A DNA stretch of 64,000 nt from the IMG/VR virus record IMGVR_UViG_3300046714_000360, positions 1 to 64,000 of that record; one strand, 5' to 3'. Position numbers and translations under genes: made by a program. This DNA comes from a virus. This document shows positions 1-60,744 of the stretch, piece by piece; position 1 is the stretch's first letter; each line of letters begins with the position of its first letter. The notes under the pieces were generated by a model that saw only the letters and a list, made by a program, of their open reading frames with translations, searched no databases and was not told the DNA's origin.

Positions 1-27
1 CTGAAGACCTAGGAGGTTAGCCAGGTA

Positions 28-201
28 ATGATCAGACCGCGTGCTCTTACACAGCGAGAAAATAGAATGGTCAACATGTATGTTGCTGGAAGTTTTAGTG
101 CAACGCAGTTGAAAGATTCTTTAGGGTATCTTGCACGGTTCAAGAAGTACAACAATGCCATTAGATTCCGTCGGTGGCAGAGGAGACATTTTCGTGGATA
201 A
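28..201 (+). CDS. small hypothetical protein, 57 aa (below ORF-track cutoff), weak HTH-like pattern
   Basis: Hand-read ATG28..TAA199-201 (MIRPRALTQRENRMVNMYVAGSFSATQLKDSLG..); AGGAGG at 11-16; stop overlaps GTG194 of next gene. Confidence 0.35.
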   Translation: MIRPRALTQRENRMVNMYVAGSFSATQLKDSLGYLARFKKYNNAIRFRRWQRRHFRG

Positions 202-1198
202 TTTTCCTATTATCGGTCAGCAGCATGAGACGTTTGAACACAACGTTGGCCAGGAGTTCAAGAAGCTTCCCGCCATCTATCAGATCGAGGCTAGCTCAGC
301 CTGCAATCTGAAATGTCCGATGTGCCTGCGCACAACAGATGTAACGCGGCCAGATCAGTTGCTCAATATGAAGTTGTTGCTGCTCATGAAAGAGCGTGGC
401 GACTTTCAAGGCTCAGCCTACATCGAGTTGCAGATGTCTGGTGAACCTACGCTACATCCACATCTAGGAGAAATCATTGCGTTTCTCAAAGATGATATCG
501 GTGTGCTGGTTGGTTTGTCCACTCACGGACTGAACATGAAGGCACCACGCGGGCGTAAAGGTGATGTAGCCCGTGATCTTATGATGTTGGATGCCTTGAC
601 TATCTCAGTCGATTCTCTCGACCCTGAGATCTATCACAAGATGCGCTATCCTGCTAAGGTAGAACGCCTGATAGAAAATCTTGACTACTTCTTTGAGCTC
701 GTTGCGTTGCGCGCCAGTCACGGGTATCCGACAACAGTTCCATTCATCGAGCTACAGCTTGTTGTCACCGATCTCGTGAAAGGCTCTGGTAATGTAGAAC
801 AGCTGCAAGATATGATGATATTGAAAGGCTGGGACAAATACGCCGAGATCAGAACCACAGGCGATTGCTTCTCAGAGATGCAAGGCCGTGTAGCCCCAGG
901 TACTCGCGAAAGGAATACCAGTCTGTGCATCAATCCATGGACAACAGTCTCTGTGGCGCAGAATGGTGATGTGACATCGTGTTGCTTCATCTTCGAGCCA
1001 AAGAAAGACGAGATCAACTATTACGGCAACCTGTATGAGCAGTCGCTTGCCGAGATCTGGTCTAGCGAGCGCGTCCAAGAAATGCGGGAGAGTCATATGA
1101 CACGCGCTACCAAAGATCAGTGTACGAAATGCTATCTCAAGTCACCGTATTTGATTCACCAGAACATAATTAGTAGGCTAGTTAGACTAGGGAGGTAG
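194..1198 (+). CDS. radical SAM enzyme with SPASM-type C-terminal Cys-rich domain
   Basis: CNLKCPMC (CX3CX2C), SGEPTLHP, STHG, SVDSLDPEIY; C-terminal CINPW..NGDVTSCCF..GNLYEQSLAEIW..CTKC. Start uncertain: TTG131 (track), ATG155 or GTG194 (AGGAGA 7 nt upstream). Confidence 0.85.
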   Translation: MDNFPIIGQQHETFEHNVGQEFKKLPAIYQIEASSACNLKCPMCLRTTDVTRPDQLLNMKLLLLMKERGDFQGSAYIELQMSGEPTLHPHLGEIIAFLKDDIGVLVGLSTHGLNMKAPRGRKGDVARDLMMLDALTISVDSLDPEIYHKMRYPAKVERLIENLDYFFELVALRASHGYPTTVPFIELQLVVTDLVKGSGNVEQLQDMMILKGWDKYAEIRTTGDCFSEMQGRVAPGTRERNTSLCINPWTTVSVAQNGDVTSCCFIFEPKKDEINYYGNLYEQSLAEIWSSERVQEMRESHMTRATKDQCTKCYLKSPYLIHQNIISRLVRLGR

Positions 1199-15053: not shown

Positions 15054-15061
15054 AAGGATGT

Positions 15062-17765: not shown

Positions 17766-17818
17766 GTGGATGGACGCGATGTATGAAGAAATGAAATCGC
17801 TCTAAGGAGATATCGACA

Positions 17819-18721: not shown

Positions 18722-18724
18722 CTC

Positions 18725-19108: not shown

Positions 19109-19109
19109 A

Positions 19110-26259: not shown

Positions 26260-26944
26260 GGACCATGAGTTCATCAAGGATGAAGCAGCAGAGATTGCTG
26301 GGGTAGCTACTTCACTCGAACGGCAAGGCATTCGTTGCGATGTAGGACATCCAGAACGCTTTTGGGAGTATGGCTTTGCTCTTCAAACGCTTAGAGGAAT
26401 ATATCCTCAGCTACAAGGTCGTCAGGTTTTGGATGTAGGTGCAGGCTGGAGTCCTTTAGGGCCAACGTTGGCTGGTAGTCGTGTTCTGGTGTCAGAAGTA
26501 GAAATTGATTTTGCATGTTATCCAGAGCGTAAGAAAATCAATGAGCTACTTGGGTACTCAGGTTATAGCGCTATCAATTGGATTCAAGGTACAGCAAGCA
26601 GTATGCAACAACATGCCGAGCTCTTTGATGCAGTGTTCTGTATATCAGTCATGGAGCACGTAGACAGGGCGTACGAGTTGAAGATGTGGGCAGACCTTGC
26701 TAAGCTTGTAGCTCCAGGTGGTTTGTTATTTATCACTTGCGACTGTGTTCCTGACCGTGGACCTAAGGTGTTTGACAATCTGCGACAGACAAACTATATG
26801 ACACAGGATCTTATGGCACGGATAAGTAATCTCGAGTCCAACTATCAGATGGAGCCGTTACTCGGGCAGCCTGATTATGATTATCATGGCAATTTTGTTT
26901 ATGACTACACGTTCTTTATGGCTGCCATGAGGAAGAAGCTATGA
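26228..26944 (+). CDS. class I SAM-dependent methyltransferase, 238 aa (TTG start)
   Basis: VLDVGAGWSPLG (motif I), FDAVFCISVMEHV, VAPGGLLFIT; AAGGAG 8 nt upstream of TTG. Confidence 0.7.
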   Translation: MQTLIKTIQAEDHEFIKDEAAEIAGVATSLERQGIRCDVGHPERFWEYGFALQTLRGIYPQLQGRQVLDVGAGWSPLGPTLAGSRVLVSEVEIDFACYPERKKINELLGYSGYSAINWIQGTASSMQQHAELFDAVFCISVMEHVDRAYELKMWADLAKLVAPGGLLFITCDCVPDRGPKVFDNLRQTNYMTQDLMARISNLESNYQMEPLLGQPDYDYHGNFVYDYTFFMAAMRKKL

Positions 26945-29192: not shown

Positions 29193-29200
29193 GGAGGAAG

Positions 29201-30193: not shown

Positions 30194-30196
30194 ACT

Positions 30197-30391
30197 ATGC
30201 CATTGAGTTATCATCCACGCATTCGTGCTTTGCAAGAAGCACAAGAGCTTGCAGGCGTTATTAAGCCTGCGAACAGTGTCGCTGTAGCAAACCTGCTCAG
30301 CGCAGAAGCACAAGGTCAGAAGAAAAAGACTGTGCCTGTTGTCGTGTTCAGTTTCAGCGGCGGCAAGGCAGTCAGATACACAGCAGCATAA
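30197..30391 (+). CDS. hypothetical protein, 64 aa
   Basis: AAAGGAGG SD; ORF track. Confidence 0.45.
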   Translation: MPLSYHPRIRALQEAQELAGVIKPANSVAVANLLSAEAQGQKKKTVPVVVFSFSGGKAVRYTAA

Positions 30392-30400
30392 AGGTGCCAC

Positions 30401-31321
30401 ATGGATCTAGCCGCAGCAGTTGCGTTACAAGGCGCAGCTCACAAGTTGGATGGGCGGACAGAGTTCCAAGGTCTCAAGATCAGTATTGAGAACGAAGTGG
30501 GCTCTGTCCGTCGTGGTGTGAATAAGAAGACTGGTAAAGCCTGGGAGACGCGTATGCGTTATCCGTATGGCTACATCAGGCTCACACAGGGCGTTGACGG
30601 AGATCACGTTGACTGTTTCCTCGGTCCTCATAAGCATGCTCGCTATGCGTATGTGATTCATCAGAATAATCCTAATACTGGCAAGTACGACGAAGACAAG
30701 GTGATGCTCGGCTTCACGTCAGCCACTGCTGCGAAGGCTGCGTACAATGTGCATTATGACCAGCCTTGGAAGTTCTATGGTTCTATGGATGAGGTGCTCA
30801 TGGAGGATTTCATTCGGAAGGTGCTCACTACAAAAGACAGGCCGAAAGTAATCAAGGCTCAGCGGCTAGTGTTGCGTGCAGGTGGGCCTGGTAGTGGTTG
30901 CCACGGTGAGAATTGTGGCAGACCACCTAAGTTTCAAGACGTGATTGATAAGAAGTACTTACGTGCGGGAGAGAAGGCAGGTTACGAAAATGTAAAGCAA
31001 CAGTTTCAGAATTCCACTATCGAATATAAGACTGTAGACAGTGCCAGCATAGAGCGTCAGAATACAGATTTGACACAGTCTGCCGTTGCTCGTTGGGAAA
31101 AGAAGATCAATGATGGTAAGGATATCCCAGCATTCGTTGTTGCTCCTAAAGAGCATGGTGGTTATTTTCTATTAGACGGGCATCATAGGTTAGAAGCTTT
31201 AGGTAAAGATCAGCCTGTTCGTATCGCAGTACTTCAGCCGAAAGTTGGTTGGCATTGGACGCGGCATGTTAGTATGCGTACTCGTGAGATTTGGATGGAT
31301 CTAGAAAGGGAGGAAGTATGA
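30401..31321 (+). CDS. multidomain protein: pyrophosphatase-like N-domain, GGPGSGC..CGRP linker, ParB-like nuclease C-domain, 306 aa
   Basis: YPYGYIRLTQGVDGDHVDCF (family-I PPase-like); RAGGPGSGCHGENCGRPPK at 30878-30931; FLLDGHHRLEAL (ParB/Srx DGHHR). Confidence 0.65.
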   Translation: MDLAAAVALQGAAHKLDGRTEFQGLKISIENEVGSVRRGVNKKTGKAWETRMRYPYGYIRLTQGVDGDHVDCFLGPHKHARYAYVIHQNNPNTGKYDEDKVMLGFTSATAAKAAYNVHYDQPWKFYGSMDEVLMEDFIRKVLTTKDRPKVIKAQRLVLRAGGPGSGCHGENCGRPPKFQDVIDKKYLRAGEKAGYENVKQQFQNSTIEYKTVDSASIERQNTDLTQSAVARWEKKINDGKDIPAFVVAPKEHGGYFLLDGHHRLEALGKDQPVRIAVLQPKVGWHWTRHVSMRTREIWMDLEREEV

Positions 31322-32028
31322 TTGCAGTGCTCACTGCCGTGCTAGGAAGCAAGTTCGGGAAGTACTTTGTTGAATTGGGTGTAGTGGGAGGTCTTGTATT
31401 CGGGGCATATTGGTATGCTGTGAATCATGGTAAGGCTGTTCAGAAGGACGAAGACAACAAGGTGCAAGCACAGGAGCTCGAGAAAGCTCGGCAGGTAGGC
31501 GCTGATGCGAAAGACCTTTTGGTTAAGCAGGCACATGACCACGAGCTAGAAGCAGACCAGCGCGCTCAAGAAGATCGTGCCAAGAACGCTGCACTTGTGT
31601 CTGTTCTGCAAGGGTTAGGTGTAAAAGAAAAAGAAGGAAAGACTCAAGTGAGTCAGTTGCCAGATTCTGAGCTACGGAGTGACATCATACACAAGCTTAG
31701 TGTGCGCGCTGCGAATGATATGACTGCTTGCTATCTGCCTTCTGAGGAACGTGTGCTCGATAATGCGATTACTCAGTACCCTTTATGTGTGCAAGGCAAG
31801 GCAGTACTCACAGAACAGGTGACTACGAAAGAGCACGAGGTACAGGATCAAGTTGTCATGGCCTCTTCTAAGCAGGCGACTATTGATGCTTTGCAGGTGT
31901 ACATCACACAGTTAGAAAAAGATTATAAGGTATTGTACGATCAGCATCCTCCAAAGAAGAGATCGATCAAGTGTTTGTTCATTTGGAAGTGTGCGATTAT
32001 CCCAACCAACATTGTCGTTGCCAAGTAG
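31318..32028 (+). CDS. membrane-anchored coiled-coil-like protein, 236 aa
   Basis: AGGGAGGAAG SD before ATG31318; N-terminal hydrophobic IAVLTAVLG..VVGGLVFGAYWYAV. Confidence 0.6.
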   Translation: MIAVLTAVLGSKFGKYFVELGVVGGLVFGAYWYAVNHGKAVQKDEDNKVQAQELEKARQVGADAKDLLVKQAHDHELEADQRAQEDRAKNAALVSVLQGLGVKEKEGKTQVSQLPDSELRSDIIHKLSVRAANDMTACYLPSEERVLDNAITQYPLCVQGKAVLTEQVTTKEHEVQDQVVMASSKQATIDALQVYITQLEKDYKVLYDQHPPKKRSIKCLFIWKCAIIPTNIVVAK

Positions 32029-32037
32029 GAGGCAGTC

Positions 32038-32253
32038 ATGGATCACCGTACAGCTGTCGCTCTTTATGATCCACCATCTTCAGAGAAGACAGGTCCTGGT
32101 GGTTGACTGATCAAAATAGGCGACCGCGTGACGGTCGATAGTGCGAAGAATCAAACAGGTGTAGTGCTTAGCCGCAAAGGGAGAGAGCTCACAGTACAAA
32201 TGAACCCGTCCGGTGACAAGGTTACCGTTGACCAGCGTGAGGTGCATCTGTGA
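32038..32253 (+). CDS. KOW-like small protein reading frame interrupted by in-frame TGA (32104-32106): recoding, split ORFs or pseudogene
   Basis: AGGAGG SD + ATG32038, 22 codons, TGA, then 48 in-frame codons LIKIGDRVTVDSAKNQTGVV..; no ATG after the TGA. Confidence 0.4.
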
Positions 32254-33158
32254 ATCTCCAAACTTATATGTCATTGTATGCAGGAGGTCCTGGTAGTGGA
32301 TGTACAGGTAGCAACTGTGGCAGACCAGCAGGAAGCAGTTCTTCAAATGAACATAAAGCGGGTGACCATGTGTACTCTGTGCATCAGTACACTGCTGATA
32401 AAGGTGTCATTGAAAAAACGAGTGGCCCTTGGCATCTTATCAGTACTCCTACTAAAGGCAGTCAAGTTTTCCATGATAAGGAGCTTACCAAAGTTCCAAG
32501 GTCTGTTCATAATGTGGAGATGGTTGCACGGCTTAGTACTGTAGTGGATGATGCTATTACTCGGTTTGCTGCTCAACAGCTTCGTGATACAGCGGAGCCT
32601 GTAAAGTATTCCCATCAAGCTAAGGCACAAGCTAGGCAGAATAGGGAGTACAATAATGATATGTTACTGAATAGATACATTGTCGGTAACAGGCTAGTCG
32701 ATGTAGTCCACTCTCTTGCAAAAAGTAATCCTGCTGCGTTTGCACAAGCGCTGAAAGCTAATCAGATCTTTCATAGGGAAGAAGCTCGCCGTTCATCTGA
32801 AGACTCGTTTAGGCACACTGACAATGTGAAGGTGATGGGAGAACAGCTCAAAGGGTTGCAGCTACTTAGAGAAGCGCTTACTACAGTGCAGCATACAAGT
32901 CTTAAGAGCGATGCTGATATTGCTGTTTATCATATGGAAGGGTTCCCTGCCTTTCATCCGCCATCGCTAAAGAATCCACAGCACATACCAGCTGATCAGC
33001 CTGGAGAGACTGACGACCGTTTCTTGGATGTCACCAAACGTAAGTCGCGTGAGAATGCATTATTCAATGACCAGCTAACGAGGAACCAAGGACAGCCTAC
33101 AACGGTGCGGACTACCTTGGTAGAACCCGGCACTTATGTTCCCTTTGATAAGTTATAA
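32250..33158 (+). CDS. hypothetical protein with N-terminal GGPGSGC..CGRP motif, 302 aa (GTG start)
   Basis: YAGGPGSGCTGSNCGRPAG at 32280-32333; GTGA overlap with upstream stop. Confidence 0.65.
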   Translation: MNLQTYMSLYAGGPGSGCTGSNCGRPAGSSSSNEHKAGDHVYSVHQYTADKGVIEKTSGPWHLISTPTKGSQVFHDKELTKVPRSVHNVEMVARLSTVVDDAITRFAAQQLRDTAEPVKYSHQAKAQARQNREYNNDMLLNRYIVGNRLVDVVHSLAKSNPAAFAQALKANQIFHREEARRSSEDSFRHTDNVKVMGEQLKGLQLLREALTTVQHTSLKSDADIAVYHMEGFPAFHPPSLKNPQHIPADQPGETDDRFLDVTKRKSRENALFNDQLTRNQGQPTTVRTTLVEPGTYVPFDKL

Positions 33159-33192
33159 ATAAGAAGAAAAGACTCCGTACAATTCATTGACC

Positions 33193-33849
33193 ATGAACTC
33201 GCATCCTGGGAATCCTATGCAAGGTAAGAAGCACTCTGCTTCTTCTATTCGTAAGATGCAGAAAGCTGCACAACAGCGTTGGAAGGATAAAGATTATAAG
33301 ACACGTTGGGTTGCTGCAGTTAGAAAGCGTTGGAAAGATCCTAGGTTTGCAGCAAGAAGGAGACGTGAGCTCAAAGATCCAGTTAGGTGTTCTAGGATCT
33401 CTGCTGCCCATGTAGGTAAAGTTATGCCGCGTAGCGCTATTGCTAAAATGCGTGCCACTAAGTTGTTGCCAGCAAATCGTCGGGCAGCGTCAGAACGTGC
33501 AAAGAAGCAATGGCTATCTCCAGGTATGCAGCAACGTATGCATGCTAAAGGATGGAATACAAAACTTGAGCAGTTAGTATCTGCAGTGTTGTCTCAGTTA
33601 GGTATCAAGTTTAAACAACAGCCTGATATTCCAGGCGTAAGTTCGGTTCCTGATTTTCTGTTGCCTAGCTTTAATAGAATCGTTGAGTGTGATGGTGCTT
33701 ATTGGCATACACGTCCTGAAGTGCAAATGAGAGACAGACGGTCTACAAGACGATATCGTAAAGCAGGTTATCATGTATCGAGGTGGTCAGACAAGTTTGT
33801 AAAAAGGCAGTCTTTCATATCTCATGTTGTGAGGTTGCTAGGTTTATGA
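33193..33849 (+). CDS. free-standing homing-endonuclease-like protein: NUMOD3-type repeats + Vsr/DUF559-like PD-(D/E)XK domain, 218 aa
   Basis: GKKHSASSIRKMQKA, GKVMPRSAIAKMRAT; VPDFLLPSFNRIVECDGAYWH..RDRRSTRRYRKAGYHVSRW. Confidence 0.6.
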   Translation: MNSHPGNPMQGKKHSASSIRKMQKAAQQRWKDKDYKTRWVAAVRKRWKDPRFAARRRRELKDPVRCSRISAAHVGKVMPRSAIAKMRATKLLPANRRAASERAKKQWLSPGMQQRMHAKGWNTKLEQLVSAVLSQLGIKFKQQPDIPGVSSVPDFLLPSFNRIVECDGAYWHTRPEVQMRDRRSTRRYRKAGYHVSRWSDKFVKRQSFISHVVRLLGL

Positions 33850-34550
33850 CACCACCTACAGATATTGTGATTTGTTTACATTCGACTGCACAATACCCGA
33901 TGATTGAGTACTTCAAACCGTGTGTCGAGACTGTGAGGCAGCACACCCAGGCCGTCCGCTTCATTTTCGTGAGCGATGGTTGTGATGCTGCACATGACCA
34001 GGAGATGCAGGAATACATCAAACGGTTCCCTGAGAGCTTGTATCTCCGGACGCCGAAGCAGTTGTGGTTCACTCGTGCCCATAACTTAGGTCTCCGGTTT
34101 GCCCGGACACCATGGGTCGTGATGCTAAACGCGGACACGGTTGTTGATGCCGGTTGGCTGGAGGATCTTTATGATGTTCGGGATGCCGTATCCGCAGAAG
34201 GATACAAAGTGGGTCTTGTCGGAGTGGAGCAGTCTGGAGAAGAGCAGAGGCGCTACCACAGAACTGCTGAGCCCGGATTTGTCACAGGCCACTGCTATCT
34301 TGCAAGCATGGATGCATTGTATGAAGCCTCAGCTAATAGAGGAACGCCAGGCATCTATCTTGATGAGACACAACAGAAGACGATACATATATATTCCGAC
34401 AACGAGATCTGTTACAGAATGAATCAGTTAGGTTGGACGACTGTAACATCCTTCAAAACTGCTGTTGGTCATCATGGAGGTAAGGCTTGGGGATATGATT
34501 TAAGTGTGTTGGGGCTTCCACTAGATGCTGTTGCCCCAAGATGGATTTGA
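33846..34550 (+). CDS. GT2 family glycosyltransferase, 234 aa
   Basis: ATGA overlap; IVICLHS.., FIFVSDGCD, NLGLRFA..VVMLNADT. Confidence 0.7.
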   Translation: MTPPTDIVICLHSTAQYPMIEYFKPCVETVRQHTQAVRFIFVSDGCDAAHDQEMQEYIKRFPESLYLRTPKQLWFTRAHNLGLRFARTPWVVMLNADTVVDAGWLEDLYDVRDAVSAEGYKVGLVGVEQSGEEQRRYHRTAEPGFVTGHCYLASMDALYEASANRGTPGIYLDETQQKTIHIYSDNEICYRMNQLGWTTVTSFKTAVGHHGGKAWGYDLSVLGLPLDAVAPRWI

Positions 34551-36400: not shown

Positions 36401-36436
36401 ATGGGCGGAGATAGTTTCCGCCCATTAATTTCGTTT
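36401..36436 (+). terminator. intrinsic terminator
   Basis: 8-bp stem ATGGGCGG/CCGCCCAT, 9-nt loop, TAATTTCGTTT. Confidence 0.6.
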
Positions 36437-37246: not shown

Positions 37247-38065
37247 ATGACCAAGCAAGAAGCAAGACGGAATCTTAAAGATGTCCGCAACCGTTTAAAA
37301 GGGTTGCGGGCTGATGTGCGTCGGAACGAGAGCGCAGAACGTAGATACCTCAAAGCCGCCAAGAAGATGAAGCCAGGCGGTGGCAGGAACAAGGGCAATT
37401 CGTTTGAGCGTGTTGTAGCTCACAAGATTGTCACTGCATTTAGTAAAGCCGGCTTTGACTTTGACGATCGCGATTGCTATCGTACACCATCGTCAGGCGG
37501 TCACAGGTATGCGAAGCACGAAGACCCAGGCGATCTTGTCATCGCTCCAAAGCTTCTCAAGGTATTTCCATATTCGGTAGAATGCAAGGACCAGAAGAGT
37601 CTTGAACTGTATCGCTTCTTCATTCCGTTCAGTAGGCATAAGTCATCCTGGCCCGAACATCAGTTCCTTGCACAAGCACTTGCAGCAGCTAAGCTTAAGA
37701 AGAGGCTTGCTCCGATGCTCGTGTTCAAGTATGCTTCTAAGATCTGGTGTGCTTTCCCTTGTCCGATTATGACCTATCCGCCGTCGATGACATTCCTGTA
37801 TCCTGATCAGTATAGTGAAAGGGCACACTGGCAACTGACTTTACTCAGTCGCTTCTTGAAGCGTCATGCAGAGCTGATGAAGAAGATAGGACATTCTAAA
37901 TTTGTGCAAGCACCCGCAGATGAGCGGGCATCTGATATCCACTATCGTGCTCACTGTGAGCCTATTGAGGATGTTGTAGACAAAAAGAAAGCTAAGAAGG
38001 TTAAGAGCAGTTACAAAGATGGCGACTATGGCAAGCTCGCAGACTTCATCATGCAAAGGAAGTAG
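37247..38065 (+). CDS. Hjc/PD-(D/E)XK-type nuclease-like protein (possible Holliday junction resolvase), 272 aa
   Basis: GNSFERVVAHKI..RTPSSGG..PGDLVI..YSVECKDQK fits the archaeal-Hjc-like pattern. Confidence 0.55.
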   Translation: MTKQEARRNLKDVRNRLKGLRADVRRNESAERRYLKAAKKMKPGGGRNKGNSFERVVAHKIVTAFSKAGFDFDDRDCYRTPSSGGHRYAKHEDPGDLVIAPKLLKVFPYSVECKDQKSLELYRFFIPFSRHKSSWPEHQFLAQALAAAKLKKRLAPMLVFKYASKIWCAFPCPIMTYPPSMTFLYPDQYSERAHWQLTLLSRFLKRHAELMKKIGHSKFVQAPADERASDIHYRAHCEPIEDVVDKKKAKKVKSSYKDGDYGKLADFIMQRK

Positions 38066-38665
38066 ATGATCATTCAAAAGAAATATTCGTTCGATTCCAG
38101 TCACATCTTGCCTAGGCACAAAGGCAAGTGTGGTAGGTTGCACGGTCACACGTATGTGGTAGACATCATCATTGAAGGCGAGTTGGATGAAGAAACCCAG
38201 TTCGTTCTTGATTATGGTGATTTGGATGTGTTCTTAAAGCCGCTCATCGAACAGGTAGATCATCGGCATCTGAACACTTTCATCCAATATCCGTCTGCGG
38301 AGAACATCTGTATCTACTTTGCGGACAAAGTCACTGACGCATTAAGATTGCATTGTGCATGGGCACTGCATCGTGATTATCAGCGACTTTGCGTTAGCGT
38401 CTCTGAGACACCAAAGACCAGCGCACATTGGGATTCACACAGCGACTATGATCTCCGCCTTTTGACTTTCGGCACAGGTTGGAAGGCTCCTACATCACCT
38501 TATATTGTTGCTTGCCAAGCCAATGATGTGACAAGGCAAAATGTCGTCATGAGAGATGCAGGTATCATCAATGAACAGCGAGCACTTGCTACTGAAGCAC
38601 TTGCCACTTATACAGCCGCGCTGATCAACATCCAGTTCCTTGAAAGTCTCGTGTTGAAGAAATGA
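38066..38665 (+). CDS. queD: 6-carboxy-5,6,7,8-tetrahydropterin synthase (QueD) with C-terminal extension, 199 aa
   Basis: FDSSHILP..CGRLHGHTYVVDI..VLDYGDL..VDHRHLN. Confidence 0.85.
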   Translation: MIIQKKYSFDSSHILPRHKGKCGRLHGHTYVVDIIIEGELDEETQFVLDYGDLDVFLKPLIEQVDHRHLNTFIQYPSAENICIYFADKVTDALRLHCAWALHRDYQRLCVSVSETPKTSAHWDSHSDYDLRLLTFGTGWKAPTSPYIVACQANDVTRQNVVMRDAGIINEQRALATEALATYTAALINIQFLESLVLKK

Positions 38666-39678
38666 ATACTGAGCCTATTGTCGCGTTTCTCCCCGCAGGT
38701 CTCGATGCGTGTGCGCTTTATCGCATGTTTCAGCCCCACATGCATATGCCACATTCTCGGTTCGTGTTCAGCTATAAGAAGCTGCCCATCGAAGACTTCG
38801 CAGAGGCCAAGGTTGCCGTCGTCCAGCGGCAATGTACGCAAGGCAACTTTATGGCGTTCAAAGTCATGAAGGATCTGGGCATGAAGATCATCTATGATCT
38901 TGATGACAATCTGTGGGCAGTACCAGCGACGAACCCAGCTTCTACGACATTCAAGGCAGTCCGTGAAGGACTCATAGTCATTGCATCGCGTTGTGATCTG
39001 ATTACTGTGTCTACACCTTCGTTGCAGACCGCAGTACGCACAGCTATGGCTCATTCAGGAGTTACAGGCTTACGTATAGAAGTGGTTCCAAATATGATTG
39101 ATCTGAATTGGTTTCATCAGCCACAAGTGCCGAAGGACAAAGAAAAAGTAATCTTAGGTTGGGCAGGTTCTAATACACATGCAGGTGATATTGGTTATGC
39201 TTGGGAAGCCTTGCCAAGTGCTCTTGCTAAAGTGCCCAATTTGTATATGGAGTTTGTTGGCATGGCTCCACCTGCGTCTATTGCTAATCACCCAAGAGTC
39301 AGGCAGCGTGATTGGGTAGGCGTCGGAGAGTTCCCAGCACGCTTCTCAAGTTGGGGATGGGACATTTGCATTGCCCCACTCGAAGATAATCGTTTCAACA
39401 GATCAAAGAGTAACATCAAGATGCTAGAATCAGGAGCAGTAGGTGCTGTATGTTTAGTGTCACCAGTAGGTCCGTATGCTGCCTTCTGCGAAACAGATCC
39501 TGAGATGCAGTATCTTGTCTGCTACAGTAGGCTGGCATGGGAGACCAAGATTGTTGAGCTAGCAAGTGACAGTGCTGTTCGTGCGCACTATGCTCAAGTG
39601 CTCCGGCGTAATGTTGAAGCGCAGTATGAAGTGACGCGTCATATTCATATCTGGAAAGATGTAGTGAGTTCTCTATGA
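38662..39678 (+). CDS. GT-B fold glycosyltransferase, 338 aa
   Basis: ATGA overlap with queD; IIYDLDDNLW, ILGWAGSNTH, IAPLEDNRFNRSKSNIKMLESGAVG. Confidence 0.65.
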   Translation: MNTEPIVAFLPAGLDACALYRMFQPHMHMPHSRFVFSYKKLPIEDFAEAKVAVVQRQCTQGNFMAFKVMKDLGMKIIYDLDDNLWAVPATNPASTTFKAVREGLIVIASRCDLITVSTPSLQTAVRTAMAHSGVTGLRIEVVPNMIDLNWFHQPQVPKDKEKVILGWAGSNTHAGDIGYAWEALPSALAKVPNLYMEFVGMAPPASIANHPRVRQRDWVGVGEFPARFSSWGWDICIAPLEDNRFNRSKSNIKMLESGAVGAVCLVSPVGPYAAFCETDPEMQYLVCYSRLAWETKIVELASDSAVRAHYAQVLRRNVEAQYEVTRHIHIWKDVVSSL

Positions 39679-39923
39679 TAGGACACATACTGTTGTATGG
39701 CTTTTATACGCTTGTGTGTTTAGGTGTTTGTATTGGTGTTTTTTACGGTTATGCTTATCTAGGTGCATATAGTACAGTGAAAACTCTGCCACGGGAGGCC
39801 ATGTTCTTTTGTAGCATTCACGGTTACATGTCGAAGTCTGCAGTTATCACTTTTTATAATGTAGAGTACTGTCCTATCTGTTACAATGCCAGTCTTGGAA
39901 ACGCGGAGCGTATTGATGGATAA
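39675..39923 (+). CDS. small membrane protein with CxxC pair, 82 aa
   Basis: ATGA overlap; hydrophobic N-terminus; CSIHG..CPICY. Confidence 0.55.
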   Translation: MIGHILLYGFYTLVCLGVCIGVFYGYAYLGAYSTVKTLPREAMFFCSIHGYMSKSAVITFYNVEYCPICYNASLGNAERIDG

Positions 39924-40728
39924 GCTGTGTTTTATCATGCCAAAAGATCCTGAAATCTATTTGGTGTCACTTGCTGTATTGCAATCCTATTTCCAAGAAC
40001 GCAAGCAACGTGAAGAAGTTGCAGGTGTGATTACACATCTAGTCGTTTCTGTGGTTACAGATTCTGCTCTACAGTTCTTGTTGGATGCTCTTCCAGTGCC
40101 TTGCCAAGTGCTACCTTTCGACACTGTTCTTATGTGTTCTGATTATGACCTAGTGTTTGCTTTTGATGCCGAAGCTGCATATCCTTTATCTGTTGCCACA
40201 GAGAAGCACATCACACAGACATTTGGTTTGCTTCTTGGTACTGATCCAAAGGCGCTACCAGATCTCTCCGCCCTTGTGGAGATAGAGCAGGCTATCAGCG
40301 GTATCGCAGAAGATATCGATAAGTCGTTGTTCGTTTTCAATGAGCTCAGCTTGTTCACGATCAGTGGTATTGTGCGTGCTTTTGAGGAAGATTATCCAGT
40401 TTTAAAGTGGACAGCCACTAAGTTGTGGAAACATCGTGCCAGTGCTCACGACCGCTTCTGTTCTGTGTTGCATGCTCCAATGGTAATTGGTGAACGGTCA
40501 TTCGAGACAATGATCTCCGCTGCGTTAGGAAAGACCACAGTTGAGTTCTATCCCACAACAATACACAGACGGTGGCTTTCCAAGTGGTCAGCAAAGTCGT
40601 ACCAGATGATTTACGGATTAGAGAACGTCACTCCAGTTAGTGTGCTAACTGCACTGAGGACCGCATGTCATCGTTTGGCTTTAGTAGCACGCCATCCTAC
40701 CGCGGTAGAAACGCGGATGGTACAGTAG
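39916..40728 (+). CDS. degenerate GT9-like protein, 270 aa
   Basis: C-terminal VLHAPMVIGERSFETMISAALGKTTVEFYP parallels the GT9 motif in 25025 and 58278. Confidence 0.5.
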   Translation: MDKLCFIMPKDPEIYLVSLAVLQSYFQERKQREEVAGVITHLVVSVVTDSALQFLLDALPVPCQVLPFDTVLMCSDYDLVFAFDAEAAYPLSVATEKHITQTFGLLLGTDPKALPDLSALVEIEQAISGIAEDIDKSLFVFNELSLFTISGIVRAFEEDYPVLKWTATKLWKHRASAHDRFCSVLHAPMVIGERSFETMISAALGKTTVEFYPTTIHRRWLSKWSAKSYQMIYGLENVTPVSVLTALRTACHRLALVARHPTAVETRMVQ

Positions 40729-41063
40729 AGATTAGATGCCATCTTTGTGGTAAGTTTATTAAGAAGGCGCTTACAAAGTTTATAGCCGTCTGTCTTGAAT
40801 GCGAGCAAAATGTGTCGCCAATAGATAGGCAACCTGTTCAGGAGGAGCCAGTTGTCTCTTTGTACACTGAGGAAGAATTGAAATCAGTTAAGAATGAAGA
40901 TAAGGCAGGCTTCATTCGTACTATCTTTCGTGCATTAGGCTTGCCAAAAGTAATACCGCTTAAGAAGAAAACATCGCAGGTAGTTGCAAAGGCCAAAGGG
41001 AGAATGAAACTGTTCTCTGCTAGAGATGAGAAGAAGGTCGAGGAGACTGAGGAAGATGAGTGA
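40665..41063 (+). CDS. hypothetical zinc-ribbon protein, 132 aa
   Basis: ORF track; CHLCGK..CLECEQ; overlaps upstream gene by 64 nt. Confidence 0.5.
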   Translation: MSSFGFSSTPSYRGRNADGTVEIRCHLCGKFIKKALTKFIAVCLECEQNVSPIDRQPVQEEPVVSLYTEEELKSVKNEDKAGFIRTIFRALGLPKVIPLKKKTSQVVAKAKGRMKLFSARDEKKVEETEEDE

Positions 41064-41868
41064 TAAGAAATACCCTGTGTCAGAAATCTTCACATCGCCA
41101 CAAGGTGAGGGCGTGTGGACTGGTACGTTGATGACTTTCATTCGCCTTGCCGGTTGTTGCGTTGGCAAGCCATTTCCAAAAGAGCGTTATACTGAACTGC
41201 CGCATTGTAAGTTTGAATGCAAAGGTGGAGACCCTGATATAGGCCACGGGCCTACGTGTGCGTATGCCAAGTCAGTCAATGCACATTTGCCTATCTACAC
41301 AGAGCAGTGCACCACGTATGATGGTCGGCACTTCGAGTGTGATACCGATTATCGCACCAAGTCGCTTATGACCAGCGAAGAGATTGTTACCCAGGTTCCA
41401 GAGGGAGTAAAGTACATCTGTCTCACTGGTGGTGAGCCTCTCATGCATAACCTGTGCCCTTTACTGCACGCTCTCACTAAGACTGGCCGCAAGATCCACA
41501 TCGAGACATCAGGCACTCGCATGCCGGTCATTGAGGAAGGCTTTGAGTTGTGGTTTCCTCCTAGCCGTGTTAGTAATCGCTATGATCCTTTGGTGTGGAT
41601 CACAGTCAGTCCTAAGGCCGGCGTCCTCATGCAGATGATAGAGCGCGCAGATGAGATCAAGTTGCTTGTAGACAACGCCTTCAAAGTGGACAAGTTGCCT
41701 TTTTACAATGTGTTCCCTTGGAGCAAAGAAGAGAACGTGTTCATCCAGCCGATCAATCACGAGAACAGTATCAATCAAGCCAACATGAAGCTTGTTCTCC
41801 AGCTCCAGCTTCAGTATCCGCATTGGAAGATATCTACACAGATGCACAAGCTGTGGCAGGTGAGGTAG
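41056..41868 (+). CDS. queE: 7-carboxy-7-deazaguanine synthase (QueE), non-canonical cluster loop, 270 aa
   Basis: VSEIFTSPQGEG, FIRLAGC, CDTDY, LTGGEPL, IETSGT, VSPK, EIKLLV, FIQP, QMHKLWQV. Confidence 0.85.
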   Translation: MSDKKYPVSEIFTSPQGEGVWTGTLMTFIRLAGCCVGKPFPKERYTELPHCKFECKGGDPDIGHGPTCAYAKSVNAHLPIYTEQCTTYDGRHFECDTDYRTKSLMTSEEIVTQVPEGVKYICLTGGEPLMHNLCPLLHALTKTGRKIHIETSGTRMPVIEEGFELWFPPSRVSNRYDPLVWITVSPKAGVLMQMIERADEIKLLVDNAFKVDKLPFYNVFPWSKEENVFIQPINHENSINQANMKLVLQLQLQYPHWKISTQMHKLWQVR

Positions 41869-41871
41869 CCG

Positions 41872-42198
41872 ATGCCTTCCATGGATAGGCCAATCTACAA
41901 ACTCGAATGTACTGAATGCAAAGGCGCAGTAGAAGCAACGTTTCCTGAGCCACGTGTTCATAATGATGTAGACATGATTTCGGTTGGTATTGTCTTGCCC
42001 TCCGTCGAGTGTCCGCACTGCCACAAGGTGCAATTCAAGTTATCCATTTCAGGGATGGCTATGACAGGTGCATCTCGTGATCTACTTGTGATGCAGACTG
42101 TCTGGGTAGCCTGCCCAGTATCACCTAAGTTGGTAGGTGCTACGCAGCTACCTCCATCATTAACACTGCCACCAGGAAAGAAGCAACGACCATTCTAA
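41872..42198 (+). CDS. hypothetical zinc-ribbon protein, 108 aa
   Basis: ORF track; CTECKG..CPHCHK. Confidence 0.55.
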   Translation: MPSMDRPIYKLECTECKGAVEATFPEPRVHNDVDMISVGIVLPSVECPHCHKVQFKLSISGMAMTGASRDLLVMQTVWVACPVSPKLVGATQLPPSLTLPPGKKQRPF

Positions 42199-42207
42199 GG
42201 AGATGTG

Positions 42208-42753
42208 ATGCCCCGTAAAAAGAAAGCCATCCAAGATCAGATAACAGAGCTAGCTCAGAGGGAGTACAGGGAGACAGGACGTTCCTTCCGTCCGTTGTAT
42301 CCTTGGATTCTCGTACGCATACTTCCAAAGGAAGCCTGGAGCTCTTCAGGCAGGATTGTATTGCCTGCCAGTCAAAACAAAGTGTTGTATGAAGGCATTG
42401 TGTTAGAAACATACCAGCCAGTTAAGAAGCTGGTTGACGATGCACATGTCACTGTCACATGCCCACTCAAGCCAGGCGATCAGATTGCGTTCCCACATTG
42501 GGACGGCTTCCCTGTTCCGTTTCTGAACGAACGGACACACAGGTGCATTCGGGAGATCGTGACGGAAGCGTTAGGTGGTGTGCCGTTCAAGATCGAGGCG
42601 GACGATGAAGACACTGTCACTCAGTTAGCAAGGAGGATCCAAGCTAAGAGGAAGTTGAGCTTCCAGAATGCGTACAAGCTCGCTGAGGACATCTTGCTGA
42701 AGTTCACAGTCATACCGACAGGGCAGAAGGCAAAGTTCACGACCAACGCGTAA
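42208..42753 (+). CDS. GroES/Cpn10-like co-chaperonin with C-terminal extension, 181 aa
   Basis: AAGGAG SD; FRPLYPWILVRILPKE..SGRIVLP..YEGIVLE..LKPGDQIAF. Confidence 0.5.
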   Translation: MPRKKKAIQDQITELAQREYRETGRSFRPLYPWILVRILPKEAWSSSGRIVLPASQNKVLYEGIVLETYQPVKKLVDDAHVTVTCPLKPGDQIAFPHWDGFPVPFLNERTHRCIREIVTEALGGVPFKIEADDEDTVTQLARRIQAKRKLSFQNAYKLAEDILLKFTVIPTGQKAKFTTNA

Positions 42754-42795
42754 CTGATGTAACAAGAAAGGCACACCCGTTTCAGGGAGCCTTCG

Positions 42796-44565
42796 TTGCC
42801 GATCACGTTAGTTCGTAAGAGTAAAAGCGCATACCGCGGGCCAGACCCTTACCAGGTAAAAGATCAGCTAGCAGGATTGCAGAATCTTTTACATGTGTGG
42901 GGGTCTGAGGCGTTCATGCGCTATTTCTTCTGGATCCTCCGCAAGCAGGAGAAACCAGATGCCAGTACTAAGGTTAAGGTCTCCCATGGTTGGAACAAAC
43001 GCCTAGTCCCATTCAGCTTAAATAAAATCCAGCGCGACATTAATGATCGTCTGCAAGAGCGCAACATCTGCTTGAAGGCTCGCCAAGTCGGTTATACAAC
43101 TTATTTTATTTTGCGTCGCCTTTGCCTGCCAGCGATCACCGAGCCTGGTGTAGGCTGCCTGCTTATCTCTCAAAACTCCGCATCTGTTGCTAAGCACTTT
43201 GATATCGTCAAGCGCACAGTTCGTTACATGGGTTGCCAAGATCCTTATGACCCAAAAGCTAACAAGGTGCACGATGAGCTGATGCAGCATCTTCTGCATA
43301 CGACCTATTCCAATAGACGAGAGATCATATTCGACCAGCTTGACTCTAGGATCATGACGGAGTCTGCTGAAGTAGAAGAGGCTGGCCAAGGTGTAACGTT
43401 GCACCACGTTGTCGCCTCTGAGGTTGCTCGCTGGGCTACCAGTCAGCAGTCTCGTTCTGGCGCACGCAGTTCAAAGCCAGAAGAAGTCCTAGCTAATGTG
43501 AAAGAGGCTATCGTGCTCGGCGGGACTCTCGATGAAGAGTCTACTGCTGATGGTATGGGTGGCTACTTCTATGAAGAGTGTATGCGCGCACGAGATGGAA
43601 GATCAGAGTTCAATTATTTCTTCCATGAATGGTGGTGGCATGAAGAGTATCGCTCGAAGATCGCTGCAGCACTTGACTCATTAGATGAGCGTGAGCAAGA
43701 GCTGCATGAGAAGATGGGTCTTGATCTATATCAGATCGGCTTCAGGCGTATCAAGCAGAAGTCACTCCGTCACAATTTTGAAGAGAAATATCCTGAAGAC
43801 GACATAACGTGTTTCCTGTTGTCAGGCAATGCGTTCTTTGATCGCGATATTATCGCTGCCAGATATAAAGAGGTCAGACTCGAGCCACCTATCGCTGAAC
43901 TGCGTAATGGTGAAGGTAAGATCTACATCAAACGTAAGAAGGGGCGTCGTTATCTAATCGGTGCTGACCCTGCAACAGGCAGGCAAGTTAACAGTGCTGA
44001 TACTGATTTCTGTGCAGCCGTTGTTATTGATATTGAGTCTGGAGAAGAGTGTGCCTCTTATAGAGCACGGTGTAGTCCTGAAGACTTCGCATATGATCTC
44101 GAGGAGCTCGGACGCACATACAACAATGCACTCATCTGTGTCGAACGTACAGGAGATGGTGGTACGTGTATCCTCACGCTACAGACACAGTGTCAGTATA
44201 CGAACATCTACAAGCACAAGGAGTGGTTCAAGAGGAACCGCGAGAAGCAGGTTGTAGAAGTTGATGGCTTCCCTACGTCCCCGAAGACGCGGCCTATCGC
44301 TCTGAACAAGCTGGCATGGTTCGTGCGGGAATATCCTGAGCTGCTTCATGACCAGACCTTCTTAGAAGAAGCGATGCGCTTCGTTCGCGACGAGAAAGGC
44401 AAACCAGCTGCAGCAGTAGGGAGCCACGATGATACCGTTTCAGCAAGATGGTGTGCGTATTATTGCAGAGAAGTAGTGCTCGGATATTTAGATCCTATGT
44501 CCTCCAAGAAACAGAAATATGGGGAAATTGAGGAGGATCTAGGGGAAGAAGTTGAGGCCGCTTAA
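42796..44565 (+). CDS. terL: terminase large subunit, 589 aa (TTG start)
   Basis: ARQVGYTTY ATPase motif region; LIGADPATG..DFCAAVVID and GSHDDTVSA nuclease motifs; AGGGAG SD. Confidence 0.85.
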   Translation: MPITLVRKSKSAYRGPDPYQVKDQLAGLQNLLHVWGSEAFMRYFFWILRKQEKPDASTKVKVSHGWNKRLVPFSLNKIQRDINDRLQERNICLKARQVGYTTYFILRRLCLPAITEPGVGCLLISQNSASVAKHFDIVKRTVRYMGCQDPYDPKANKVHDELMQHLLHTTYSNRREIIFDQLDSRIMTESAEVEEAGQGVTLHHVVASEVARWATSQQSRSGARSSKPEEVLANVKEAIVLGGTLDEESTADGMGGYFYEECMRARDGRSEFNYFFHEWWWHEEYRSKIAAALDSLDEREQELHEKMGLDLYQIGFRRIKQKSLRHNFEEKYPEDDITCFLLSGNAFFDRDIIAARYKEVRLEPPIAELRNGEGKIYIKRKKGRRYLIGADPATGRQVNSADTDFCAAVVIDIESGEECASYRARCSPEDFAYDLEELGRTYNNALICVERTGDGGTCILTLQTQCQYTNIYKHKEWFKRNREKQVVEVDGFPTSPKTRPIALNKLAWFVREYPELLHDQTFLEEAMRFVRDEKGKPAAAVGSHDDTVSARWCAYYCREVVLGYLDPMSSKKQKYGEIEEDLGEEVEAA

Positions 44566-44618: not shown

Positions 44619-44712
44619 TTGACTTGAGGACCGCGAAAACCTATACTATTCTTGGGTAGAGGGACTGTTCAAAAGAGGGTCGTCCAAACGGGCGGCCCTT
44701 TATCCTTTATAT
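44619..44712 (+). promoter_or_regulatory. conserved promoter-leader cassette, copy A
   Basis: TTGACT 44619-24, 17-nt spacer, TATACT 44642-47, ATTCTTGGGTAGAGGGACTG; 9-bp hairpin 44677-44698 then TTTATCCTTTATAT. Confidence 0.6.
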
Positions 44713-60728: not shown

Positions 60729-60744
60729 CGCTCAGAAGGAACTC

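Follow-up and report, generated by a model that had tools for sequence, protein, structure and literature searches.

What does a phage make from two enzymes of 7-deazaguanine synthesis, QueD and QueE, when proteins resembling glycosyltransferases lie between their genes? The phage considered here is an uncultivated tailed phage with a genome of about 125 kb, of which a 64-kb stretch (the window) was analysed. A 124,662-bp contig carries a QueE and a glycosyltransferase identical to those of the target, so that the genome extends beyond the window, and the 7 kb 5' of the window encode RecA, a clamp loader and an SMC-like protein. The block of interest consists of ten + strand genes (37247-44565) that adjoin or overlap one another, with terminator-like hairpins on each side, in the order resolvase-like nuclease, QueD, a GT4-like glycosyltransferase (GT338), small membrane protein, GT9-like ORF5, zinc ribbon, QueE, zinc ribbon, GroES-like protein and large terminase subunit (Table 1).

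Table 1. Features of the block and of the 5' end of the window, by position in the window.
Feature	Position	Strand	Basis
GT349-family 404-aa GT4-type glycosyltransferase (last 20 nt only in window)	1..20	+	remainder upstream, L002 5941-7155
Radical SAM/SPASM protein	131..1198	+	PF04055 2e-11; PF13186 4.5e-13
Terminator-like hairpin, 5' of transcription unit	36401..36425	+	11-bp stem, 6 GC pairs, then T-rich tail
PD-(D/E)XK resolvase-like nuclease	37247..38065	+	PF24608 PDDEXK_15 2.7e-11; phrog_244 RusA-like resolvase 9.7e-13
QueD (6-carboxytetrahydropterin synthase)	38066..38665	+	PF01242 1.2e-27
GT338, GT4-like retaining-type GT-B glycosyltransferase	38662..39678	+	phrog_7162 2.8e-36
82-aa protein, hydrophobic N-terminal segment, C-terminal CxxC	39675..39923	+	sequence reading
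ORF5, degenerate GT9-like (GT-B) protein	39916..40728	+	profile-level match only
132-aa zinc-ribbon protein (CxxC ... CxxC)	40665..41063	+	without Pfam/PHROG match
QueE (7-carboxy-7-deazaguanine synthase), divergent clade	41056..41868	+	phrog_2076 7.9e-28
108-aa zinc-ribbon protein	41872..42198	+	phrog_2834 7.7e-4
GroES/Cpn10-like protein	42205..42753	+	PF00166 4.2e-7
Large terminase subunit (TerL)	42796..44565	+	phrog_2 2.1e-20
Terminator-like hairpin, 3' of TerL	44674..44701	+	12-bp stem, 7 GC pairs, then T-rich tail

The initial annotation had read these genes as an operon, and this is confirmed by the junctions, by conservation in relatives and by the flanking hairpins. In the ORF table, stop and ATG abut at 38065/38066, there are 4-nt overlaps at 38662-38665 and 39675-39678, 8-nt overlaps at 39916-39923 and 41056-41063, and a 3-nt gap at 41868/41872; independent gene calls on an identical Logan contig give the same starts for QueD, GT338, the 82-aa protein, ORF5 and QueE. 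The 132-aa zinc-ribbon ORF overlaps the 3' end of ORF5 by 64 nt, and the form conserved in relatives is the long one (62% identity across the whole length in L005; 26% at the same position in L009). Both hairpin-plus-T sites, on the + strand, were rated strong. Overlapping gene junctions are common in phage genomes, and it is the conservation in relatives, not the overlaps by themselves, that raises this block above chance.

The block is kept in eight relatives (QueE 41-64% identical) in which nearly all flanking genes differ, and the same bracket is found in three further GT338 contexts. The nesting of sugar transferases between queD and queE, noticed in the initial annotation, thus recurs: QueD lies upstream and QueE downstream of the glycosyltransferase in 12 of 13 complete contexts, despite the turnover of the flanks and even with extra genes inserted inside. 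The 82-aa protein has homologues at the same position in L005, L009, L017, L019, L126 and L127, the 108-aa zinc ribbon in L005 (61%) and L009 (29%), and the GroES-like gene is kept in every relative examined; TerL is 42-84% identical, and the position of the nuclease is taken by an endonuclease VII in L009, L127 and L128. GT338-family and QueE-family proteins also co-occur on at least 12 long contigs, as judged from a length fingerprint. The bracket persists more than expected for unrelated neighbours, and we count this against explanations in which the glycosyltransferase genes form an independent module.

QueD and QueE are genuine enzymes of the 7-carboxy-7-deazaguanine (CDG) pathway, as first assigned. 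QueD carries the CxxxHGH and DHxHLN motifs, and its CGRLHGH and DHRHLN align with E. coli QueD (4ntm, 2.4e-15); its nearest solved structures are CPH4 synthases, it has a C-terminal extension of about 80 aa, and it scores 88.7 bits against TIGR03367, below the cutoff of 89.25. For QueE, the PDB sequence matches are QueE proteins (6nhl, 1.5e-17; 4njg, 1.5e-11), the best six Foldseek matches of its AF2 model (pLDDT 87.7) are all QueE, and at E<1e-6 only QueE structures are matched. Across 63 sequences there is no variation in C34, C85, C95, QGEG, F28/R30, CDT, GGEP, ETSG, PK and QxHK, and all the substrate-, Mg- and SAM-associated motifs are likewise invariant; the cluster motif of this QueE, CX~50CX9C, is a new one.

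The proteins between queD and queE are genuinely of GT-B type. The AF2 model of GT338 (pLDDT 95.1, pTM 0.92) finds BshA first in Foldseek (3mbo, 2e-12, TM 0.73), then MshA, GlgM, PimA, PglA and WaaG. With the GT4 retaining enzymes BshA, MshA, PimA and WaaG it shares the fold (TM 0.6-0.73, probability 1.0), the C-terminal nucleotide-sugar-binding motif and the second Glu of EX7E (E256), but it is only 10-15% identical to them, its first EX7E Glu is replaced (S248-K249), and its N-terminal domain has a distinctive invariant motif, YDLDDNLW. In all, 22 residues are invariant across 62 homologues. Profile and structure searches, as proposed in the initial annotation, matched the nuclease, QueD, GT338, QueE, the GroES-like protein, TerL and, at 7.7e-4, the 108-aa zinc ribbon. 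ORF5 had no match in Pfam, PHROG or NCBIfam, and is GT9-like by profile comparison only: its family profile aligns with the Pfam-supported GT9 of the window (58278-59165; hhalign 85%, E 6.6e-6), with G-E-R-S-F-E, of which the G is invariant, at the position of the GT9 D-x-G-x-x-H.

Where, then, is the rest of the pathway? FolE, QueC and DpdA were indeed not found in the window, either with Pfam (all + strand ORFs), with PHROGs (most of them) or with a DpdA HMM in six frames. The initial annotation took the pathway to be incomplete; we think that it is instead split, since relatives encode DpdA and FolE, with DpdL or a QueC-like protein, some 60 kb away. The 119,002-bp relative L012 carries the same block, and a contig walk places GT349-162aa-rSAM/SPASM-MTase-DpdA-DpdL-FolE-378aa about 60 kb from it, beside the DNA polymerase, a large polymerase-like ORF (DpdA HMM 4e-32; DpdL with LxxxHRHxF; FolE PF01227 1e-50). 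A second relative (L016/L120) has a QueC-like protein (PF06508 8e-23) and a DpdA whose N-terminus is 61% identical to that of the first. DpdA is thus encoded in both relatives examinable in the relevant region, so that QueD and QueE most likely feed a DpdA-dependent 7-deazaguanine modification of DNA. As DpdA, DpdL, QueC and FolE were not seen within the 71 kb read from the target, it is from these two relatives that we infer a DpdA in the target itself, and its DNA would be modified.

The explanation that we consider best overall, and in which we have moderate confidence, is therefore a split pathway accompanied by a separable glycosylation module, the block being part of a late, packaging-proximal operon. 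QueD would convert host-made dihydroneopterin triphosphate into CPH4, and the divergent radical-SAM QueE would convert CPH4 into CDG, the two forming the CDG-producing half; the distant half, beside replication genes, would comprise the DpdA transglycosylase and FolE, plus either the QueD paralog DpdL or a QueC-like enzyme. GT338, the small membrane protein and ORF5 would be co-inherited and co-transcribed with queD and queE.

The closest precedent is Cellulophaga phage phiST, whose QueC-less set of FolE, QueD, QueE, DpdL and DpdA3 leads to dDG, its DNA carrying 2'-deoxy-7-deazaguanine (Cui et al. 2023, PMC10516641). Like phiST, the target has QueD and QueE without QueC, and the relative L119 has DpdL, with its LxxxHRHxF signature, beside DpdA and FolE and adjoining a polymerase. 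Unlike phiST, the genes here are split over two loci, QueD and QueE are parted by the glycosyltransferase module and adjoin TerL, GT4 proteins occur at both loci, DpdA and DpdL are known from relatives, and in the relatives DpdA is similar to that of Iggy and R7M rather than to DpdA3. The canonical dPreQ0/dG+ clusters (Queuovirinae; Pseudomonas phage Iggy; Alteromonas phage R7M) likewise have QueD and QueE homologues, a DpdA-type transglycosylase and a link to replication genes, but they are contiguous (QueE-QueC-QueD-FolE-DpdA), include QueC or Gat-QueC, lack a glycosyltransferase, and have a QueE only about 25% identical to that of the target.

A more direct coupling deserves to be taken seriously, even if we consider it rather unlikely. 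Here GT338 would attach a sugar to a base, nucleotide or DNA residue derived from CDG, possibly assisted by the GT9-like protein in a non-catalytic capacity, and a 7-deazaguanine bearing a sugar or some other extension would be present in the DNA of the phage. Besides the conserved bracket, the coupled junctions and the co-occurrence on long contigs, it can draw on the intein inside the most conserved motif of the L012 GT338 homologue, on the small-molecule enzymes BshA and MshA among the nearest folds, and on the observation that dDG was not reconstituted from DpdL and DpdA, so that further enzymes are perhaps needed (Cui et al. 2023, PMC10516641). It can also draw on a second family, GT349, to which the 404-aa protein at the edge of the window belongs (alignment A8: hhalign 99.4%, E 5e-22, 287 columns). 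GT349 adjoins DpdA/DpdL in L119, L046 and L048 and lies directly beside them in two isolates, Acidovorax phage ACP17 and Xanthomonas phage X1. L119 has the order GT349-162aa-rSAM-MTase-DpdA-DpdL-FolE, and the radical SAM/SPASM protein of the window is 56% identical to the L119 protein (14481-15473) two genes upstream of DpdA; the target thus has both genes in common with a relative's DpdA module. A GT349 with intact EX7E is also found in the overlapping six-gene operons of L046 and L048 (DpdA-DpdL-GT-QueD-QueE-FolE), where DpdL precedes it and QueD follows. A GT4 family inside such compact operons means that glycosyltransferases may genuinely take part in deazaguanine systems that lack QueC. 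The initial view that sugar transferases fall outside any known deazaguanine pathway is thus not supported, the more so as the actinomycete huimycin and dapiramicin clusters combine deazapurine core genes with a GT4-type glycosyltransferase (a likeness of gene content), HuiG of huimycin acting on the preQ0-derived base (PMC7439116; bioRxiv 10.64898/2026.04.15.718813). Those clusters serve bacterial secondary metabolism, yield a free small molecule and require QueC and an O-methyltransferase.

Several observations nevertheless weigh against such coupling, and against the glycosylated deazapurine as originally proposed. L126 retains GT338-TM-ORF5-Cpn10-TerL with QueD and QueE absent within 6 kb (they may be encoded elsewhere in its 170 kb), and in L007, L013, L015 and group B this QueE clade is present but GT338 is not. 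GT338 and GT349 represent separate GT4 subfamilies (hhalign 8%), the glycosyltransferase fold is a generic one, cellular GT338 homologues never adjoin que genes, and 7-deazaguanine, the DpdL product, offers no obvious acceptor at C7. That the module is separable is also favoured by the other sugar genes of the window, an island at 25-34.5 kb and the GT9 at 58278. The model for this coupled reading is the pair of T4 alpha- and beta-glucosyltransferases, phage GT-B enzymes that act after replication on a base that already bears a modification; their acceptor is the hydroxymethyl group of 5-hmC, and neither of them is in the list of the 50 top structural matches of GT338. We infer that GT338, the membrane protein and ORF5 work independently of QueD and QueE, a glycan, envelope or virion target being a more likely acceptor than a deazapurine. 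Of the initial interpretation, the Que enzymes, the GT-B proteins and their conserved nesting stand; the incompleteness, the placing of sugar transferases outside deazaguanine pathways and the product are not supported in the form first given.

A role of queD and queE as auxiliary metabolic genes, raising the queuosine-tRNA supply or CDG pool of the host during infection while the DNA stays unmodified, we consider improbable: FolE, QueC, QueF and TGT are normally supplied by the host in the established queuosine pathway, and the 71 kb read would agree with this, but both examinable relatives have DpdA, related QueE genes lie in DNA-metabolism modules (some members of the clade adjoin DpdA and QueF, others exonuclease, Sak4, SSB and polymerase), and the sole tRNA of the window is tRNA-Arg(ACG), a non-queuosine tRNA. 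Least credible of all is a diffusible glycosylated 7-deazapurine of the huimycin or dapiramicin kind that would target the host or competitors. The actinomycete clusters and the small-molecule acceptors of the best structural matches of GT338 could be invoked for it, but the present block is without phosphoribosyltransferase, exporter or QueC, its neighbourhood is one of DNA packaging (resolvase, TerL), relatives have DpdA, and no phage precedent was found in the literature searched.

If the split pathway judged from relatives is correct, the QueD/QueE block is one half of a DNA-modification system.

The 64-kb window carries all of its genes on the + strand, with one tRNA-Arg, and has a GC content of 44-51%. 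Ten ORFs with abutting or overlapping stop and start codons occupy 37247-44565 (+), and this arrangement, which the initial annotation had described for 37247-42753, is upheld by the ORF table and by gene calls made independently on a Logan contig of identical sequence, which give the same starts. Strong + strand hairpin-plus-T sites flank the transcription unit at 36401-36425 and 44674-44701, and between them the + strand hairpins are only weak (5-7 bp). Most of the labels given earlier to these genes (nuclease, QueD, glycosyltransferase, QueE-like, Cpn10 and TerL) agree with our family searches; ORF5 (the fifth gene of the block) and the two zinc-ribbon proteins gave a significant match in none of the libraries searched. 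The profile and structure searches recommended at that stage likewise recognise QueD, and find a QueE fold for QueE and a GT-B fold for GT338, the glycosyltransferase of the block.

Genes of the block and loci that hold a gene of the GT349 glycosyltransferase family (window positions unless a locus is named; block, 37247-44565)
Feature	Location	Strand	Evidence
PD-(D/E)XK resolvase-like nuclease	block	+	family search
QueD	block	+	PF01242, 1.2e-27
Glycosyltransferase GT338	block	+	phrog_7162, 2.8e-36
QueE-like radical SAM	41056-41868	+	phrog_2076, 7.9e-28
Cpn10/GroES-like	42205-42753	+	family search
TerL	block	+	family search
GT349, metagenomic loci	L046 1932-6022; L048 5427-9740; L119 12959-14008		
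GT349, isolates	L122 (ACP17) 5963-7375; L123 (X1) 4446-7363		
GT349, target	L002 5941-7155 = window -1194..20		

In an alignment with E. coli QueD (4ntm) and P. aeruginosa 2oba, residues 22-28 of QueD read CGRLHGH, that is, the CxxxHGH signature, which contains the catalytic Cys together with two His that bind Zn and is distinct from the variant LxxxHRHxF of the QueD paralog DpdL. The protein also has DHRHLN, and its best alignment is with solved CPH4 synthases. It scores 96.7 bits against PF01242 (cutoff 22.4) and falls 0.55 bits short of the NCBIfam equivalog TIGR03367 (88.7 bits, cutoff 89.25). A C-terminal extension of about 80 aa (window 38426-38665, residues ~120-199) is shared with the relative L019.

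The QueE of the block matches the E. coli and B. multivorans enzymes in sequence, and the six best PDB matches of its AF2 model (pLDDT 87.7) are all QueE (6nhl, 4njg, 5th5, 5tgs; E 2e-12 to 5e-7), with PFL-AE as the next family at 4e-4; the predicted fold is the modified (beta/alpha)6 radical-SAM core of QueE type. The motifs QGEG, F-x-R, CDT, (T)GGEP, ETSG, (S)PK and QxHK show no or almost no variation among 63 clade members and align with the E. coli and B. multivorans proteins, in whose structures we take them to serve substrate, Mg and SAM binding. The usual [4Fe-4S] cluster of QueE is held by three Cys spaced CX3CX2C or CX14CX2C. Neither spacing was found in this clade (the window protein and its 63 homologs), where C34, C85 and C95 are invariant with the spacing CX~50CX9C, the third position ahead of the last Cys varies, and the insertion between the cysteines is variable and at times Cys-rich. 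All five curated NCBIfam QueE types score far under their cutoffs (the best, TIGR04508, at 81 bits versus 240). The clade is a sixth, uncurated QueE type, to judge from sequence and model QueE-like in function, and is defined by a putative cluster-binding CX~50CX9C insertion whatever the role of the glycosyltransferases proves to be.

Genomic contexts gathered by an IMG/VR scan with a QueE alignment and by contig look-ups are of three kinds. Group A (L005, L009, L011, L012, L014, L016, L017 and L019, on contigs of up to 128 kb; QueE 41-64% and TerL 42-84% identical to those of the window) keeps the order QueD-GT338-(TM)-ORF5-(Zn)-QueE in all eight members, TM being the 82-aa membrane protein; Cpn10-TerL follows in seven of them, and L012 stops at a contig end just past QueE. 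Group B (QueE 34-40% identical) has QueC...QueD-QueE-FolE in a replication/recombination module without a glycosyltransferase, and group C (25-30%) has canonical DpdA-QueC-QueD-QueE-FolE clusters; in L007 and L010 (48%), DpdA, QueE and QueF lie amid replication genes. Three further GT338 contexts (L127, L128 and L129) show the same bracket with extra genes inside (GT2_5, a TSCPD protein, small ORFs). The nesting of glycosyltransferases between queD and queE, already noticed in the initial annotation, is therefore strengthened, since QueD...GT338...QueE is present in 12 of 13 complete GT338 contexts. The exception, L126 (ENA ERZ25039522 contig_9583, 169,835 bp), has GT338-TM-ORF5-...-Cpn10-(N6/N4 MTase)-TerL at 5989-12484, with neither QueD nor QueE within 6 kb. 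Of the window ORFs at 24.8-56 kb (47 in all), those outside the block are almost all without a homolog in the seven more distant relatives; the block is a conserved core within a turnover-prone region. The extra ORFs between QueD and GT338 differ among relatives (L019 6825-7277; L128 6367-7023; L129 6252-6998; GT2_5 and the TSCPD-domain protein are among them), which indicates that the block tolerates insertions at this one junction. HNH genes interrupt the Que region in L016, L017, L021, L120, L128 and L129; TerL is enlarged to ~970-1018 aa in L019 and L129 (running off the locus in the latter) and is interrupted by an insert in L017.

FolE, QueC and DpdA, the DNA transglycosylase, had been described as not recognisable in the window, and the pathway as incomplete. 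The first statement is correct: no DpdA, QueC, FolE or QueF was found there with Pfam (all + strand ORFs) or PHROGs (most of them), and no DpdA by tblastn with three DpdA types or with phiST DpdA3 in six frames. As Pfam, NCBIfam and precomputed annotation fail on the DpdA proteins of these phages, we built our own DpdA HMM (120 homologs), which detects the DpdA of L010 and those of group C and finds none in the window, in the 7 kb upstream of it, or, at group A and B loci, up to 10 kb from QueE. Three candidates were discarded: a weak match to Iggy DpdA at 63425-64000, which is a Walker-A ATPase; a DpdA of the L007 type, whose contig-length fingerprints did not match and which differs from the type later found in this clade; and two ORFs (268 aa and 193 aa) that follow the rSAM/SPASM gene and bear no relation to DpdA. 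The ATPase ORF (motif GASGSGKS) runs off the window end, and L009 has an FtsK-family gene in a similar position.

The second statement is not borne out by the relatives. We walked along the group A contig of 119,002 bp to which L012 belongs. Downstream of TerL, its GT9 and GrpE are collinear with window 58278-61647; the 681-aa protein that comes next corresponds in gene order to the Walker-A ATPase ORF, and after it lie what is probably the head and tail module, made up of large conserved ORFs without annotation, and further ORFs. These are followed, in the stretch L119 of the contig, by a module of the order GT349-162 aa-rSAM/SPASM-SAM methyltransferase-DpdA-DpdL-FolE-378 aa-980-aa polymerase-like ORF. 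Its DpdA (16675-17655) is recognised by the HMM at 4e-32 and matches Iggy DpdA at 6e-22; its DpdL reads LRDNHRHEF, i.e. the published LxxxHRHxF motif, and matches phiST DpdL at 5e-18; its FolE matches PF01227 at 1e-50. The FolE ORF (18036-19193) has an HNH endonuclease domain in its N-terminal half. The second group A contig reaching this region (L016/L120) encodes a QueC-like protein (PF06508, 8e-23) and, at L120 15942-16481, the N-terminal part of a DpdA that shares 61% identity with the L119 protein; L019 has a QueC-like gene near the block. DpdA being present in both relatives in which the relevant region was read, the clade encodes the insertion enzyme, and its pathway is divided over two loci, one packaging-proximal and the other replication-proximal.

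The search of more of the genome for folE, queC and dpdA, suggested at the outset, thus succeeded in relatives and found no DpdA in the 7 kb upstream of the target window. RecA, a clamp loader and an SMC-like protein are encoded in these 7 kb, as is a 404-aa protein ending at window position 20, which is a GT349-family member (99.4%, E 5e-22). Together with the rSAM/SPASM gene at 131-1198, it makes two genes that the target shares with the replication-proximal module; the rSAM/SPASM protein is 56% identical to its L119 ortholog, which lies between GT349 and the methyltransferase-DpdA-DpdL-FolE run. No DpdA adjoins these two genes in the target. A 124,662-bp JGI contig carries identical QueE and GT338, so that the window is about half a genome and, if the two relatives are a guide, the target's own DpdA would lie in the remaining ~53 kb. 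Joining two Logan contigs of SRR26075294 at an exact 32-bp direct repeat (53350-53381 and 63132-63163, 9782 bp apart) gives the window itself; as the repeat coincides with the contig ends, the assembly broke there. A circular genome wrapping around within the window was rejected, no long self-repeat being present. We also rejected the existence of close cultured relatives, the best isolate TerL being ~31% and the best isolate QueE 27% identical.

The AF2 model of GT338 (pLDDT 95.1) is a GT4-like GT-B structure with two Rossmann-like domains. It has more than 300 PDB fold matches at E<=1e-3, and the best 50 listed are GT-B glycosyltransferases, mainly GT4, led by BshA, MshA, GlgM, PimA, PglA and WaaG; the family profile matches BshA (2jjm) at 1.7e-5. 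Twenty-two residues are invariant in 62 homologs, and in the EX7E motif the second Glu is invariant (E256 in SKSNIKMLE), the first position being Ser/Lys. A DNA glucosyltransferase was considered and rejected, T4 AGT and BGT being absent from the best structural matches listed, and cellular homologs (25-30% identical, never adjoining que genes) were discarded as a functional clue. The L012 homolog (6226-8445) contains a full intein (Cys ... His-Asn/Ser, LAGLIDADG-type blocks) inserted at the slash in the invariant GT338 motif FNxSK/SNIKMLE. ORF5 has no match in Pfam or NCBIfam; its family profile aligns with the Pfam-supported GT9 of the window (hhalign 85%, E 6.6e-6, 192 columns). The sugar-nucleotide motif D-x-G-x-x-H of GT9 is not conserved and reads G-E-R-S-F-E, with Gly at the Asp position in nine of nine family members, so "degenerate GT9-like" seems a fair label. 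The sole match of ORF5 among PDB sequences, MreC, is spurious, and the GT9-like ORF at 25025 showed no relation to it.

We are inclined to think, with moderate confidence, that QueD and QueE supply 7-carboxy-7-deazaguanine (CDG) for a DpdA-dependent DNA modification and that GT338-TM-ORF5 is a separable glycosylation module sharing the late operon. By analogy with the relatives, the product would be a QueC-less base of dDG (2'-deoxy-7-deazaguanine) or dCDG type, or a base depending on the QueC-like protein. We read the cassette as separable because L126 retains it without Que genes nearby, because the QueE clade exists without it, and because the window holds many other sugar genes.

The glycosylated deazapurine proposed in the initial annotation, with the glycosyltransferases acting on the deazapurine itself, is possible and in our opinion rather unlikely. 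Its premises stand as far as the protein identities and the conserved nesting are concerned, and the translational coupling of the block genes also speaks for it; the supposed incompleteness of the pathway is not borne out by the relatives, L126 keeps the glycosyltransferases without Que genes nearby, and the reaction is chemically plausible only with CDG-type or exocyclic-amine acceptors. An independent argument in its favour comes from GT349, whose EX7E motif is intact and whose PDB matches are only GT1/GT4 proteins. In L046 and L048/L049, DpdL and QueD flank it in operons of six fully overlapping genes (DpdA-DpdL-GT-QueD-QueE-FolE); in Acidovorax phage ACP17 (ASD50404) it is followed directly by DpdL, and in Xanthomonas phage X1 (WEM34306) directly by DpdA and DpdL. 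It also occurs in the cultured Xanthomonas phage BUDD. Grouping GT338 and GT349 in one family was rejected (hhalign 8%; different GT4 subfamilies). That QueD and QueE boost tRNA queuosine is improbable given DpdA in the relatives and the packaging and replication context, and the same evidence makes a diffusible deazapurine glycoside most improbable. Huimycin and dapiramicin, actinomycete metabolites, are glycosylated preQ0 derivatives (PMC7439116; bioRxiv 10.64898/2026.04.15.718813); there the sugar is on a preQ0-derived free metabolite. GT338 and GT349 are linked to deazaguanine by genomic association only.

Eight 7-deazaguanine DNA modifications are known and, to our knowledge, none carries a sugar. 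A more general idea, which we regard as doubtful, is that QueC-less (CDG- or DpdL-type) phages use dedicated GT4-type enzymes to make a sugar-bearing 7-deazaguanine in DNA, the candidates being the GT349 family and, for this clade, GT338 together with its GT9-like partner. If true, this would be a class of DNA hypermodification not yet described. Two GT4 families show, independently of each other, a genomic link to QueC-less deazaguanine genes. The presence of GT349 in cultured phages (ACP17, X1, BUDD) makes such a ninth, glycosylated class directly testable by nucleoside mass spectrometry. It could also explain why dDG was not reconstituted from DpdL and DpdA of ACP17 or phiST, for which further enzymes were suggested as perhaps needed by Cui et al. 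2023 (PMC10516641), who make no mention of a glycosyltransferase. The deazaguanine papers that we found do not discuss the GT349 family, and our literature search found none on glycosylated deazaguanine in phage DNA.

Compared with the known phage 7-deazaguanine system, the split architecture, the QueE type and the embedded glycosyltransferase modules are new. Regardless of what the glycosyltransferases do, a widespread clade of phages of ~115-130 kb divides this pathway between packaging and replication modules, which calls for caution before a pathway is called incomplete from partial contigs; nor does it change the result that Pfam, NCBIfam and precomputed annotations overlook the DpdA proteins of these phages.

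Elsewhere in the window, a sugar-gene island (26228-34550) encodes a SAM methyltransferase, a GT4, a sugar C-methyltransferase (Methyltransf_13/14), GDP-mannose 4,6-dehydratase, an InPase-domain protein and a GT2, with an HNH/Vsr-like endonuclease ORF (33187-33849) between a 302-aa ORF and the GT2. The separate GT9 (58278-59168) is conserved with GrpE in relatives (L110-L113). GrpE (60745-61647) and the GroES-like protein are phage-encoded chaperones, and the close relative L005 has a faint DnaJ zinc-finger match at 17277-17930.
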